A stretch of 64,000 nt of DNA from Corallococcus sp. Z5C101001 (lineage in GTDB: Bacteria; Myxococcota; Myxococcia; Myxococcales; Myxococcaceae). Under the pieces are notes generated by a model, which searched no databases, had not been told where the DNA came from, and saw nothing but the letters and a program-made list of their open reading frames with translations. The stretch covers positions 443,940-507,939 of the forward strand of contig NZ_VKLU01000005.1 of the NCBI RefSeq assembly GCF_007352635.1. Direction: 5' to 3'. The number at the start of each line of letters is the position of its first letter. Position 1 is the stretch's first letter. The translations under genes and the position numbers were made by a program. This document shows, one piece after another, positions 41,193 to 45,400 of this stretch.

Positions 41193-41654
41193 CTATTCCG
41201 GCCGTGGCCGCCGGTAAGTGGCGAGAATGACAGGGACCGCCACCCCTGTCACCAGAAGTGCCTGCGCCAACAGCACCGCGGGGAGCGGGTGCTGCACGTG
41301 GACATGCAGCGAGCGGCCAAGCCCCGCCCCCAACAGGACGCCCGTCAGCGTGCGCACCGCGTTGGAACCCGACGCGGGCCGGAACCGCCCCACCGCCCAG
41401 TCCAGCAGCGCGGGCAGCGTGAGGCCCAGTCCCACCGGGACATCCCACGACCACTGGAGCGGCGCCTTCAGCGCGAACAGCCCCAGGAAGACGGCGGCGA
41501 GCACCGGGTACGTGCCCAGGCACCGCGCGCACACGCGCGCGCCCGCGAGCACATAGGTGCGGTTGTATTCATCCGGGTGATGATGGCTGAGCCAGAACAC
41601 CGGCACCTCCTCCAGACGCGGAGACAGTGGGGGGTTCCCACGCGGGACGGGCAT
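41193..41654 (-). CDS. Small polytopic membrane protein with CxxC motif (DUF2085-like)
   Basis: HHHPDEY...CARC followed by 3-4 TM helices. Start uncertain; longer ORF overlaps the oppF-like 3' end. Confidence 0.4.
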
Positions 41655-42624
41655 CCCCCTCCGCCAGGAAGCACGCCGCGGCGTGGCCTCCCCCCAGCGG
41701 GTACAGCGGGGGCGACTCGCGCCGGCAGCGCTCCATCGCGTGGGGACAGCGTGGGTGGAACGCACAGCCGGCGGGCGGAGACAGCGGCGAGGGCGGCTCC
41801 CCCGGCAGCAACAGCCGGGCGCGAGGCCGCTCCGGGTCCGGCACCGGCACCGCGGACAGCAGGGCCTGCGTGTACGGGTGGCGCGGCCCGGAGTACAGCG
41901 CGCGCGACGGCGCCACCTCCACGATGCGGCCCAGGTACATCACCGCCACGCGCGTGGACACGTACTCCACGATCTTCAGGTCGTGCGCGATGAAGACGTA
42001 GGTGAGGCCGCGCTCGCGCTGCAGGTCCACCAGCAGGTTGACGATCTGCGCCTGGATGGAGACGTCCAGCGCGCTGATGGGCTCGTCCGCCACCACCAGC
42101 TCCGGGCGCAACGCGATGGCACGTGCAATGCCGATGCGCTGGCGCTGGCCCCCGGAGAACTCGTGCGGGTAGCGGTGCCGCGCCTCGCGGGGCAGGCCCA
42201 TGGCGTCCAGGAGCGCCAGCACCTCGTCCTCGCGCGCCCGGCCCTTCGCGAGCCCGTGGATGGCGAAGGGCTCCGCGAGGATGTCCCCCACCGTCATGCG
42301 CGGGTTGAGGGACGCGTACGGATCCTGGAAGACCAGCTGCATGCGGCGGCGCAGCGGCCGCAGCTCGCGCTGCGACAGGCCGGTCAGCTCGCGACCCTCC
42401 ACGCGGATGGAGCCGGACGTCGGGTCGATGAGGCGCAGGAGCGCGCGCCCCAGGGTGCTCTTGCCGCAGCCGCTCTCCCCCACCAGGCCCAGCGTCTCAC
42501 CCCGGGCGACCTCGAAGGACACGCCGTCCACCGCGCGCACCGTGCCGCGCGTGCGCCCCAGGAAGCCGCCCCGCACCGGGAAGTGCACCTTCAGGTCGCG
42601 CACCTGGACCAGCGGCTCGCTCAT
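41569..42624 (-). CDS. Oligopeptide/dipeptide-type ABC transporter ATP-binding protein (OppF/DppF-like), no cognate permease nearby
   Basis: Walker [10 protein letters not shown], signature [14 protein letters not shown], Walker [14 protein letters not shown]-terminal Opp/Dpp domain [14 protein letters not shown]. Confidence 0.85.
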
Positions 42625-43643
42625 GGCGCGGGCACCGGGTGGTGGCAGGCGGCCCACTGGCCTCCGCGCTTCGACTCCAGCGCGGGCGTGAGGCGGGCGC
42701 ACAGCTCGCTGGCCCGGTCGCAGCGGTCTCGGAACGCGCACCCGGACGGCAGCGCGCCCAGCGACGGCACCATGCCGGGGATGGCCTTGAGGCGCTGGCG
42801 TCCGCCCTCCGCCGCCCCCGCGTCGTGCAGGGATGGGATGGAGCGCAACAGGCCCGCGGTGTACGGGTGCGCGGGGCGGGCGAACAGCTCCCGCACCGGG
42901 GCCTGCTCCACGATGCGGCCCGCGTACATCACCACCACCGCGTCGCAGCTCCCCGCCACCACGCCCAGGTCGTGGGTGATGAGCATCACCGCCATGTGGC
43001 GTTCGGCCTGGAGCCGCTTGAGCAGCTCGAGGATCTGCGCCTGGATGGTGACGTCCAGCGCCGTGGTCGGCTCGTCCGCGATGAGCAGCGCCGGGTCGCA
43101 CGCGAGCGCCATGGCGATCATCACGCGCTGGCGCATGCCTCCGGAGAGCTGGTGCGGGTACGCGTCCACGCGCTCGCCGGGCGCGGGGATGCCCACCTGT
43201 CGGAGCATCTCCACCGCGCGCTCGCGCGCCTGGGAACGGGTGGCGCCCAGGTGCAACCGGACGCCCTCGCCAATCTGCTCGCCCACCGTGAACACCGGGT
43301 TGAGCGACGTCATCGGCTCCTGGAACACCATGGCCACGTGCCGGCCGCGAACGCGCCGCATCTCCCGCTCGGGAAGGGCCAGCAGATCCTCTCCCCGGAA
43401 GCGCACCTCGCCGCCCACCACGCGGCCGGGGGGCTCGGGCACGAGCCGCATCACCGACAGCGCCGTGAGGCTCTTGCCGCAGCCACTCTCCCCCACCACC
43501 CCCAGCGTGCCGCCCGGAGGGACGTTGAAGGACACGCCATCCACCGCGCGCACCGTGCCGCGCGCGAGCGACAGCTGGGTGGTGAGGCCCCGCACGTCCA
43601 GGAGCGGGGCCCCGGCGTCCGGGGACGGCGCGACGCCGGTCAC
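42621..43643 (-). CDS. Oligopeptide/dipeptide-type ABC transporter ATP-binding protein (OppD/DppD-like), no cognate permease nearby
   Basis: Walker [11 protein letters not shown], signature [14 protein letters not shown], Walker [23 protein letters not shown] start overlaps the upstream MshEN gene stop. ATGA overlap with the downstream ATPase. Confidence 0.85.
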
Positions 43644-44635
43644 TTCTGGGCCAGCTCCTCCAGGAACTCCGCCTCCTGGATGAGCCCCTTGCGGATGAGC
43701 AGGCGGATGAGGCTCGCGACCATGCGCGCGGGCTTCACCTTCTCCGTGTCCAGGCTGGCCTCCTCGCCGCGAGAGATGCGGTCGATGTCGTCCAGCACCG
43801 CCAGGTCCTCCTCGGAGAAGTCCGGCTTGGGCGTGAGCGCCACCGACGGCTTCACGCCCTGCGCGGCGCCGCCGAAGAGCACCACCGGCACGCGCGGCTT
43901 GTTGGGATCCGCGTCCGCCTCCGAGGGCGGCGGCGGGGGCGGAGGCCTCGCGGCGGCGGGCGGCGGCGGGGGCCTGGCGGCGGGCCGGGGCTTGGAGCCC
44001 AGGATGTCCTCCAGCACCTCCGCGCCGTCCGCGGAGGACTCGTGGGGCGGCGGCGGGGGCAGGTCCCAGTCCAGCGGCGGAGGCGCGGGCGGGCGCGCCG
44101 ACGAGGGACGCGCGGCGGCGGGCGCCGGCGTCGACGGCAGGATGTCCGGCGAATCGTCCTCGTCCATGTCCATCGGTTCTGCCTCCACGATGTCCAGGGG
44201 CTCTCCCCGGCCGCGCGCGAGCGCCTGCTCCAGGTCGTCTGGAGCGGCGACAAAGACCTTGAGCTGCTTGCGCAGTTGGAAGCGCAGCTGGTCCACCAGG
44301 TTCAGGTTGCCCGGGTCCTCGACCGCCACGTGGAGCTTCTCGCTGCGGCCGTCCTGCTCCAGCGCGAAGAGCAGCACGCGCTGCTCGGTCTGGAAATCCA
44401 TGGACACCAGCGAGGACACCGCGTGCGGGATGTACTCGGGGATCTCCACGAAGGGCAGCTCGTGCTGCGCCGCCAGCGCCCGCGCGATGTCCCGGCCGGT
44501 GCACAGGCCCATGGACACCAGCACCTCGCCCAGCTTGCGGCCCTGGCCGCGCCGTCCGGAGGCCAATGCCTGCTTCACCTGCTCGTCCGTGACCACGCCC
44601 GCCTGGACGAGGAGTTCACCAATCTTCTTGCGCAT
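43640..44635 (-). CDS. MshEN/T2SSE_N-domain protein (putative c-di-GMP binding) with Pro-rich linker
   Basis: Two 24-aa MshEN-like motifs: [24 protein letters not shown] and [24 protein letters not shown]. GspE-N fold region. Long poly-Pro stretch. Confidence 0.65.
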
Positions 44636-44644
44636 GGCCGGGGG

Positions 44645-45400
44645 CTACCGCTTGACCTTGGCGAGGTATTCCTCGCGGGAAAAAACGCCCTTCTCGATGA
44701 GCAGCTCCACCATGGCCTTGAGCGCCGCGACCTCCTTGCGCTGCACGTCCTCCACGCTCTTGAGCAGCTCCGCGGGACTTCCGGAGGCCGCCGCGCGAGG
44801 CGCCTCCGCGGGAGGCGGCGGACGGGCCGGCGCGGGGGCGGGACGGGCGGGCGCGGACGCAGCGACCGCGGCGGCCGGGTCCAGGTCCTTGAGGTTCTTC
44901 ACGACGGTGCGGCCCTGGGCGTCCACCACCTTGAAGTTGGTGTCCGCGTCCTCCAATTCCGCCGACTCCTCGTAGAGGCGCGCGAACGCCCGCGCCACGG
45001 ACGTGCGCCCCGCCACGTTGGCCACGATGCGGCACTTGGACAGGGCCCGCAGCTCGTCCAGCACCCGCACGTTGAGCGGATCCGACATCGCGACCACCAG
45101 CGTCTTGCCGTCGTCGCGCAGCTGCAGGGGCACGACAGAGAAGTCGCGCGCCGTCTGCGAGGGAATCTTGGCCTTCACGTGCGGCGGCACCGCCTGCACG
45201 GCGTCCAGGTTCACCGCCGGCATGCCGAGCTGCTTCGACAAGGCGCGCACGAGGATGTCCTCGGAGACGAGGTTCATCCGGACGAGGATCTCGCCCAGCT
45301 TCCCGCCCCACTTGGCCTGCTCGGCGAGCGCCGCCTTGAGCTGGCTCTCCTGCAGGACGTTCGCCTTGATCAGCAGTTCTCCAAGCTTGATCTGTGCCAT
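44645..45400 (-). CDS. MshEN/T2SSE_N-domain protein (putative c-di-GMP binding)
   Basis: Two consecutive motifs matching RLGxxL(V/I)xxG(I/F)(L/V)xxxxLxxxLxxQ: KLGELLIKANVLQESQLKAALAEQ and KLGEILVRMNLVSEDILVRALSKQ. Second GspE-N-like repeat at the C-terminus. Confidence 0.7.
   Translation of the reverse strand: MAQIKLGELLIKANVLQESQLKAALAEQAKWGGKLGEILVRMNLVSEDILVRALSKQLGMPAVNLDAVQAVPPHVKAKIPSQTARDFSVVPLQLRDDGKTLVVAMSDPLNVRVLDELRALSKCRIVANVAGRTSVARAFARLYEESAELEDADTNFKVVDAQGRTVVKNLKDLDPAAAVAASAPARPAPAPARPPPPAEAPRAAASGSPAELLKSVEDVQRKEVAALKAMVELLIEKGVFSREEYLAKVKR

Follow-up and report, generated by a model that had tools for sequence, protein, structure and literature searches.

Cyclic diguanosine monophosphate (c-di-GMP) is essential in both stages of the Myxococcus xanthus life cycle, and to our knowledge few of its effectors are known in this bacterium, in which most MshEN proteins have no assigned function. 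Here we describe a 64-kb stretch of DNA (hereafter the window) from Corallococcus sp. Z5C101001, a member of the Myxococcaceae, in which two stand-alone MshEN genes lie directly before the genes for two ATP-binding cassette (ABC) ATPases of the OppD and OppF type. MshEN is also found in NfrB, a GT2-MshEN protein whose glycosyltransferase is activated by c-di-GMP, and another cyclic dinucleotide, cyclic-di-AMP, gates the ABC importer OpuC through its ATPase subunit. High-affinity MshEN receptors of c-di-GMP fused to type II secretion or type IV pilus ATPases have been described in MshE of Vibrio cholerae, PilB and the GSPII-B domain of PilF (PMC5013675; PMC11731258), and the PilZ-FimX-PilB system of Xanthomonas provides trans-acting c-di-GMP adaptors of a pilus ATPase (PMC8389850).

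The two window proteins share with MshE, PilB and PilF GSPII-B two tandem 24-residue motifs, which depart from the strict consensus at some key positions, the GSPII subdomain and, as predicted here, a coupling of c-di-GMP sensing to an ATPase. They differ from them in lacking a fused T2SSE ATPase domain, in carrying a disordered Pro-rich linker and an extra C-terminal hairpin, and in that the ATPases with which they are associated are ABC-type OppD/OppF proteins rather than hexamers of the PilT class; binding, too, is predicted for the window proteins. The ATPases in turn resemble those of OppABCDF/DppABCDF (PepT family) in their ABC_tran and oligo_HPY domains, their catalytic motifs and their Cys cluster, and orthologous loci carry genes in the order oppA-B-C-...-D-F. 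Unlike such operons, however, the orthologous loci hold one or two MshEN genes between oppC and oppD, while the window locus is without binding-protein and permease genes and has a DUF2085 gene after oppF. NfrB shows that MshEN can regulate enzymes beyond the secretion ATPases, and alignments with the NfrB-type MshEN region (NF012033, NF008411) were obtained for each window protein, but in NfrB the domain forms one polypeptide, in cis, with a glycosyltransferase whereas those of the window are free-standing and paired with ABC ATPases. The likeness to PilZ-FimX-PilB and OpuC is one of concept, namely that a cyclic dinucleotide acts on a transport or assembly ATPase via an adaptor or a nucleotide-binding subunit, while the receptor folds and nucleotides are different.

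On our best reading of the sequences, the four genes represent that half of an ABC importer operon of the Opp/Dpp family which encodes the cytoplasmic components, supplemented by two built-in trans-acting c-di-GMP receptors. We give an even chance to the proposal that this receptor pair gates the Opp/Dpp-type ATPase dimer, with oppABC having been lost from this locus. The MshEN receptor, the Opp ATPases and the M. xanthus operon, which has been catalogued, are already known; what appears to be undescribed is that MshEN and OppDF form a conserved association, that relatives hold it inside an opp operon and that the module outlasts the permease.

Gene organization of the locus

The locus is on the minus strand, as are all features of the window given below unless stated. 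In transcription order, the DUF4292 lipoprotein gene (45460-46317) comes first, followed by the genes for MshEN1 (44645-45400; 251 amino acids, aa), MshEN2 (43640-44635; 331 aa), the OppD/DppD-like ABC ATPase (42621-43643; 340 aa, GTG start), the OppF/DppF-like ABC ATPase (41569-42624; 351 aa) and a small membrane protein of the DUF2085 family (about 41193-41603; ~135 aa; Pfam PF09858). From MshEN1 to DUF2085, these are the orthologues of MXAN_4667, MXAN_4666, MXAN_4665, MXAN_4664 and MXAN_4663 of M. xanthus. An earlier note on this DNA, made from the sequence alone, had placed two MshEN genes here, overlap-coupled to the genes for an OppD-like and an OppF-like ABC ATPase; both genes exist, the four 24-aa peptides quoted from them translate exactly where they were said to lie, and the overlaps to the two ATPase genes are as described. 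At the first of these junctions the MshEN2 stop codon overlaps the OppD start in a GTGA sequence (cagaaGTGAccggc), and the OppD/OppF junction is an ATGA overlap (gcgccATGAgcgag). Only 9 nucleotides (nt) separate MshEN1 from MshEN2, and the last ~31 nt of OppF are shared with the DUF2085 gene. We read MshEN1-MshEN2-OppD-OppF, with or without DUF2085, as one translationally coupled transcription unit.

In M. xanthus, MXAN_4667 to MXAN_4662 are catalogued as ‘Operon 24’ with MXAN_4667 as the first gene, a strong transcription start site (TSS) has been mapped at 5 nt before MXAN_4667, with an internal one at 66 nt before MXAN_4662, and both MXAN_4667 and MXAN_4666 are expressed during growth (PMC8844925 and its supplement). 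In the window, a TACTAT box resembling a -10 element, read by eye, is found 12 nt upstream of the MshEN1 ATG (45413-45418). We take it as a candidate promoter because the TSS mapped in M. xanthus fits, and its position would imply a near-leaderless MshEN1 transcript. A sigma-70 consensus scan returned no promoter at this box or upstream of MshEN1, and a terminator scan gave two terminator-like matches, both at chance level and inside genes.

The two MshEN proteins as predicted c-di-GMP receptors

Searches with hidden Markov models, the check that the earlier note had proposed, place both proteins above the curated cut-offs of Pfam MshEN (PF05157; 56.9 bits, 2.1e-15, for MshEN1 and 48.6 bits, 8.2e-13, for MshEN2; cut-off 23.1) and of the NCBIfam c-di-GMP_motif model (NF053729; 64.7 and 61 bits respectively; cut-off 38). 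Profile scans found no T2SSE ATPase domain in either protein, and they are thus free-standing, as the note had said. The name GspE/PilB, carried by the NCBI record, was rejected, as TIGR02538 and TIGR02533 match the N-terminal 150 aa only, with at most 66 bits against cut-offs of 630-676.

Each protein carries a tandem pair of c-di-GMP motifs, which we scored against the consensus (R/K/L)LGxx(L/V/I)(L/V/I)xxG(L/V/I)(L/V/I)xxxxLxxxLxxQ, comprising 24 residues with 11 key positions and a 5-residue spacer between copies. In MshEN1, motif I (KLGELLIKANVLQESQLKAALAEQ; 45317-45388) and motif II (KLGEILVRMNLVSEDILVRALSKQ; 45230-45301), the latter preceded by the 5-residue spacer AKWGG, each retain 10 of the 11 key positions, and in MshEN2 eight are retained by motif I (44555-44626) and nine by motif II (44465-44536). 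All four copies have K at position 1, where the strict motif has R. This appears to be tolerated and even favourable, since PilF GSPII-B, with K167 at the same position, binds c-di-GMP with a dissociation constant of 6 nM (PMC11731258). The residues to whose substitution the failure of XpsE to bind c-di-GMP is attributed (list from PMC5013675) are all retained in MshEN1. From these sequence features, c-di-GMP binding is predicted and judged likely.

MshEN1 consists of the two c-di-GMP motifs, a GSPII domain, a Pro/Ala-rich linker and a conserved C-terminal helical hairpin, whereas MshEN2, which shares 34% identity with it across the N-terminal 144 aa, has an N-terminal MshEN, a long, Pro-rich and hypervariable linker and a C-terminal motif of 24 aa (43643-43714). 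The C-terminal motif of MshEN1 (ALKAMVELLIEKGVFSREEYLAKVKR; 44648-44725) resembles a degenerate half of an MshEN motif without the RLG. By sequence, 140-165 residues of MshEN1 align with the N-termini of PilF, PilB and MshE (6F8L, 5ZFR, 5HTL), some chains of which were solved with c-di-GMP. The AlphaFold2 model of MshEN1 has a mean predicted local distance difference test score (pLDDT) of 83.5, exceeding 90 over residues 11-140, with confident helices at 209-237 and 242-250. A Foldseek search matched its N-terminal 140 aa to c-di-GMP-bound MshE (5HTL_B; template modelling score, TMt, 0.82; root-mean-square deviation 2.4 Å), with further matches to both GSPII-A and GSPII-B of PilF, and MshEN1 is thus modelled with a four-helix N-subdomain and the GSPII alpha/beta fold.

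Orthologues of MshEN1 are 91-99% identical within Corallococcus and 74-86% identical in other cultured genera of the Myxococcaceae. The wider family, of 230-300 aa, comprises 122 clusters at E<1e-30 in a library clustered at 50% identity, and all of its named members are assigned to Myxococcota or ‘Deltaproteobacteria’. Among 50-73 family members, down to 32% identity, the most conserved columns are the motif residues and the C-terminal hairpin. The WGG of the spacer and G32/G33 are invariant or nearly so, and the hairpin has the consensus ALRAxVELLIEKGVFSREEYLARVRR, in which L233, L234 and G238 of MshEN1 are at least 90% conserved among 50 representatives spanning the same range.

Probable loss of oppABC from an opp operon

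Both ABC ATPases combine ABC_tran with oligo_HPY (Pfam), their Walker A, Q-loop, signature, Walker B and H-loop are intact, and each has a C-terminal cluster of four Cys. The OppF-like protein reaches 414.2 bits against the cut-off of 408 for the NCBIfam subfamily NF008453, while the best NCBIfam models for the OppD-like protein, DppD (366; cut-off 541) and OppD (362; cut-off 575), both fall below their equivalog cut-offs. No permease or binding-protein gene was seen beside them, in agreement with the earlier note: Pfam scans of the window's candidate genes gave neither BPD_transp_1 nor SBP_bac_5 and covered all but a few short stretches, one of which (17842-19704; 1.9 kb) has room for a single gene and not for the ~3.7 kb of oppABC. 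The note had also allowed that the ATPases might belong to a canonical Opp transporter encoded just beyond the window. This is not so in this genome, where the slot that such genes occupy in relatives, between DUF4292 and MshEN1 (45401-45459), is only 59 bp long.

To place this arrangement in context, we examined 90 loci, of which a genome scan with the MshEN1 family alignment supplied the closest 80 (all Myxococcaceae/Archangiaceae), with distant contexts found via profile search and contig look-ups. In 24 loci (L085, L090 and 22 others), genes in the order oppA-oppB-oppC, encoding an SBP_bac_5 protein and two BPD_transp_1 proteins, lie exactly between DUF4292 and MshEN1, to give the layout DUF4292-OppA-OppB-OppC-MshEN(-MshEN)-OppD-OppF. 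These belong to uncultured Myxococcaceae/Archangiaceae metagenome-assembled genomes (MAGs), with 57-70% MshEN1 identity, and to the cultured Vulgatibacter incomptus. In 57 of the 90 loci, DUF4292 is followed directly by MshEN1, as in the window, and these permease-less loci span all the cultured genera (Corallococcus, Myxococcus, Pyxidicoccus, Citreicoccus, Hyalangium, Archangium, Cystobacter and Vitiosangium).

The OppD and OppF of the window are 71% and 78% identical to their counterparts in the full opp operon of L085, in line with the values for MshEN1 (65%) and DUF2085 (61%), and we therefore regard the two pairs of ATPases as orthologues. Since the 24 loci hold a full operon in the same slot, the ATPases probably descend from a normal Opp importer in which MshEN genes stood between the permease and ATPase genes. 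The older layout would thus be DUF4292/oppA-oppB-oppC-mshEN(-mshEN)-oppD-oppF, surviving in the sister lineages and in Vulgatibacter, and cultured Myxococcaceae, this Corallococcus included, would have lost oppABC at this locus. The description ‘permease-less’, as used in the earlier note, accordingly holds locally but refers to what is probably a derived state, as orthologous ATPases sit within a full opp operon at the same syntenic position in sister lineages. To judge from identity levels, the branching points of Vulgatibacter and of the MAG lineages probably lie outside the cultured Myxococcaceae, and on either parsimonious scenario the lineage of the window would have lost oppABC secondarily. 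DUF2085 was considered as a replacement membrane partner and rejected, as it is also present where oppABC is retained.

Conservation across the Myxococcota

Among the 90 loci, the arrangement MshEN1-(MshEN2)-ABC-ABC is kept in every locus long enough to judge. Four of the five distant Myxococcota MAG contexts (L084, L086, L087 and L089) likewise combine a small MshEN protein, a giant one and two oligo_HPY ABC ATPases, without permease, DUF2085, ECF (extracytoplasmic function) sigma factor or Tad genes. With the set retained in all judgeable loci and in these four contexts, the MshEN-OppDF combination is unlikely to be accidental. In M. xanthus (-3), Vulgatibacter (ATGA), L084, L086 and L089, the MshEN gene, or the second one where there are two, overlaps or directly adjoins the first of the two ABC genes.

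The giant MshEN proteins, of 1081-1427 aa (L084 9823-13551; L086 4539-8822, minus; L087 9792-13073; L089 5396-8641, minus), consist of a canonical N-terminal MshEN, a linker of 800-1200 aa that is rich in Pro (16-22%) and Ala (16-20%), and a short C-terminal helix. For a receptor predicted to lie in the cytoplasm, such a linker would be a very long tether. The giant proteins and the single MshEN of Vulgatibacter end in the same type of C-terminal motif as MshEN2.

Vulgatibacter shares the upstream synteny of the Myxococcaceae, with a diaminopimelate (DAP)-dehydrogenase gene, two MaoC genes, ExbBD and DUF4292, and has no DUF2085, ECF sigma, anti-sigma or Tad genes downstream. Its single MshEN gene, ATGA-overlapped with OppD, is of the MshEN2 type. 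In two MAG lineages (L054 9001-9830; L064 4193-5090), MshEN2 is missing and MshEN1 is followed directly by OppD. With MshEN1 only in these two and only the MshEN2 type in Vulgatibacter, it seems that one paralogue of either type can accompany the ATPases by itself. DUF2085 is found in Myxococcaceae loci both with and without oppABC, and in neither Vulgatibacter nor the distant MAG loci. Taken together, these comparisons would define an invariant core consisting of MshEN and the OppD/OppF pair, whose neighbours oppABC, DUF2085, the ECF pair and the Tad genes vary between lineages.

The distant loci also bear on DUF4292. In L084, a tblastn match to a DUF4292-like protein (8105-8920) lies directly upstream of the small MshEN gene, and L087 has a gene of the same size in the corresponding position with neither a Pfam nor a tblastn match. 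The adjacency of DUF4292 and MshEN may be older than the insertion or loss of oppABC.

Selection on the retained genes

Ratios of nonsynonymous to synonymous substitution rates (dN/dS) were calculated by the NG86 method; as dS has probably come close to saturation in a genome so rich in GC, it is the comparison between groups and not the absolute values that can be trusted. In the permease-less genera, dN/dS was 0.22-0.29 for OppD, 0.20-0.32 for OppF and 0.14-0.27 for MshEN1, and in permease-bearing pairs 0.23-0.25 for the ATPases, with comparable values for flanking genes. Distances (dN) to the Vulgatibacter outgroup were 0.30 for OppD from both the window and L085, and 0.25 and 0.24 respectively for OppF. 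After the loss of oppABC, MshEN1, the ATPases and DUF2085 appear to have remained under unchanged purifying selection. That the genes are decaying remnants was ruled out by the preserved reading frames, motifs and dN/dS across many genera.

One uncultured clade in which oppABC is retained (L063, L066-L070 and L072-L083; e.g. L076 10953-12988) has full-length OppD/F-type proteins that are 39-55% identical to those of the window, as compared with 55-80% for flanking genes. Within this clade dN is 0.5 for OppD/OppF versus 0.14 for CpaB, and the OppF signature is degenerate (LSVGQ). This divergence may reflect fast evolution, which we preferred to a reading of the two proteins as non-orthologous ATPases, or else replacement.

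A proposed trans-acting receptor pair for ABC ATPases

In the arrangement that we favour, MshEN1 and MshEN2 would each bind c-di-GMP via the N-terminal four-helix module and dock on the OppD-OppF heterodimer, with the GSPII subdomain, the conserved hairpin of helices at the C-terminus, or both, as putative contacts, and docking would switch the ATPase cycle, and hence peptide uptake, according to the level of c-di-GMP. This would be the trans equivalent of the control that MshEN exerts in cis on MshE, PilB, PilF and NfrB. In this genome, the ATPase pair would either serve Opp-family permeases encoded elsewhere or keep another ATP-dependent role. Four lines of evidence argue for such receptors: the MshEN-ABC adjacency is deeply conserved; the overlap that couples an MshEN gene to the first ABC gene recurs in several lineages; loss of the permease genes left the MshEN genes beside the ATPases; and there is precedent in the cis control by MshEN of ATPases and a glycosyltransferase elsewhere.

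Several observations weigh against it. Both MshEN1 motifs have N and not G at position 10, motif I of MshEN2 ends in G at position 24 in place of the terminal Q, and the MshEN2 spacer has 6 rather than 5 residues. Some MshEN-like domains, such as PilF GSPII-A and XpsE, fail to bind c-di-GMP (PMC11731258; PMC5013675), and binding by the window proteins is a prediction only. Among the distant contexts, the fifth MAG (L088) has MshEN alone, without ABC genes, and in the oppABC-retaining clade described above OppD/OppF evolve much faster than MshEN1, so that co-evolution is not evident. Most lineages bearing the quartet lack adjacent permease genes, and a non-transport role is thus possible. Finally, no cultured Myxococcaceae genus appears among the best 120 OppC homologues (at least 54% identity, more distant permeases being outside this scope), which makes a relocated OppC orthologue unlikely.

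These last two points lead to the alternative that fares best, although we consider it unlikely: that after oppABC loss the MshEN-OppDF-DUF2085 set was repurposed as a c-di-GMP-controlled device that does not transport but signals to the ECF sigma/anti-sigma pair downstream, and so to Kil, the Tad-like contact-dependent killing system of M. xanthus. Permease genes are indeed missing beside the quartet in the 57 loci and the four distant contexts, no close OppC orthologue was seen in the cultured crown genera among those 120 homologues, the set is always followed in Myxococcaceae by DUF2085, the ECF sigma factor, the zf-HC2 anti-sigma factor and genes of Kil cluster 2, and ‘Operon 24’ of M. xanthus extends to the sigma factor MXAN_4662. 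A change of partner or function usually leaves a trace, however, and the rate and constraint of the ATPases are unchanged after permease loss. DUF2085, the ECF sigma factor and the Tad genes also follow the set where oppABC persists, which argues against their being permease replacements, and are absent from Vulgatibacter and the distant MAGs. The unchanged constraint and this shared presence weaken the proposal. In M. xanthus, moreover, MXAN_4662 has its own TSS, and MXAN_4666/MXAN_4667 drop slightly in starvation-induced development (PMC8844925) whereas the kil genes are reported to be induced by starvation (PMC8460266). A bolder form of the same idea, in which the set in cultured Myxococcaceae is a free-standing c-di-GMP-gated ABC-ATPase device that powers no importer, its ATP hydrolysis being relayed via DUF2085 to the sigma/anti-sigma pair to tune Kil expression or assembly, strikes us as improbable. 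If it were true, the engine of an ABC importer would have been turned into a second-messenger-driven regulator of predation.

It is similarly doubtful that the two pairs of genes are functionally unrelated neighbours, the MshEN genes riding in an opp operon while acting on other targets and OppDF being ordinary shared ATPases. The many contexts in which the 17-22 MshEN genes of M. xanthus occur, the family member that stands alone in L088 and the clade in which OppDF rates do not track those of MshEN1 would all fit such a view. But the adjacency survives at least three different flanking contexts, down to ~35% MshEN identity, the overlap of an MshEN gene with the first ABC gene recurs, and at oppABC loss the MshEN genes stayed with the ATPases and not with anything else; conserved coupling of this kind is hard to square with chance neighbourhood.

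Least likely is the role implied by the earlier note, in which MshEN and the ABC ATPases replace or regulate a missing Tad ATPase as an energising or regulatory accessory of Tad/Kil: the set lies ~3 kb from CpaB/TadB/TadC in a neighbourhood conserved in Myxococcaceae, and MshEN domains are normally part of type IV filament ATPases, but an ATPase belonging to Kil itself, KilF (MXAN_3107), is supplied by cluster 1 at another place, the published cluster 2 (MXAN_4648-4661) ends short of the set, eight other genes separate the set from KilB in M. xanthus (Seef, 2021; PMC8460266), and relatives hold the set inside a canonical opp operon. The ‘Tad-like apparatus lacking its ATPase’ of the note is thus explained by the location of KilF, and since Vulgatibacter (L090) and the four distant MAGs (L084, L086, L087 and L089) have the set with no Tad genes beside it, the Tad link is a lineage-specific neighbourhood.

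Returning to the trans-acting receptors, a sensor-plus-ATPase set conserved across the Myxococcota suggests a link between c-di-GMP and peptide-transporter ATPases. MXAN_4666 and MXAN_4667 now have a concrete candidate partner in the OppD/OppF-type ATPases MXAN_4665 and MXAN_4664. If the reading is correct, we know of no earlier example in which MshEN receptors act in trans on an ABC importer's ATPase subunits, and a second messenger would be tied directly to the uptake of peptides by bacteria that feed on those set free from prey. The distribution of oppABC also offers a natural experiment, since the module is accompanied by its permease in uncultured Myxococcaceae and in Vulgatibacter incomptus but has none beside it in Myxococcus, Corallococcus and Archangium, the ATPases being equally constrained in both. 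From this pattern one may ask what role is left to a pair of ABC ATPases once the permease genes of their own operon are gone.

The earlier note had further supposed that the module is of a type not obviously described. In the literature searched we found no paper on the combination, nothing relevant on MshEN with ABC transporters or on c-di-GMP acting on OppD/OppF, nothing on MXAN_4662-4667 in the main texts, and nothing of use on the opp genes of M. xanthus. Free-standing MshEN proteins are not in themselves unusual, with 17-22 MshEN genes in M. xanthus (PMC5013675; PMC8844925), and MXAN_4666 and MXAN_4667 already stand in a list of 17 of them (Kuzmich et al., 2022, supplement; PMC8844925).

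Kil cluster 2 and other neighbouring genes

Downstream of DUF2085 are the genes for the ECF sigma factor (40481-41161; orthologue of MXAN_4662) and the zf-HC2 anti-sigma factor (39045-40497; orthologue of MXAN_4661), both neighbours rather than core parts of the set. They are followed by a small Flp-like open reading frame (ORF) containing the sequence GQAMVEYSMI (within 38475-39044) and then by the Kil cluster 2 orthologues of KilB (CpaB; 37659-38474), KilG (36735-37580) and KilH (35831-36721), the last two being T2SSF proteins. Beyond these lie two large FHA-domain proteins (30196-31956 and 31978-35724), which match MXAN_4648 and MXAN_4649 of the same cluster; one has TPR repeats and one is 1248 aa long. 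Although this part of the window thus resembles Kil, the orthologues of MXAN_4662-4667, including the MshEN and OppDF genes (MXAN_4664-4667), fall outside the defined cluster and are found in other lineages with no Tad genes beside them, and MXAN_4662-4667 were not examined in the Kil study (PMC8460266).

Kil cluster 2 is much more compact in the window than in M. xanthus, with the single Flp-like ORF between the anti-sigma gene and CpaB (38475-39044) in place of the corresponding region of the M. xanthus locus (L002 16421-20718). The TadE/TadG-like genes next to MXAN_4661 in M. xanthus had no tblastn match anywhere in the window. The compact layout is also seen in uncultured relatives.

Other genes of the window may be relevant to c-di-GMP. 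A fusion of a receiver and an HD-GYP (HD_5) domain is encoded on the plus strand (52030-53187), ~7 kb from the MshEN genes. It appears orthologous to the M. xanthus HD-GYP gene MXAN_4675, and its neighbourhood is conserved in Corallococcus and Myxococcus and not in Vulgatibacter. This protein could provide local turnover of c-di-GMP. A hybrid histidine kinase (19701-22295) with the architecture GAF-HisKA-HATPase-REC and a partial GGDEF match may resemble SgmT (MXAN_4640), a c-di-GMP-binding kinase. Further along, a ParB_N-domain protein (13975-15477) is encoded close to a bactofilin (16570-16959), a pairing reminiscent of the PadC/BacNOP cluster of M. xanthus.

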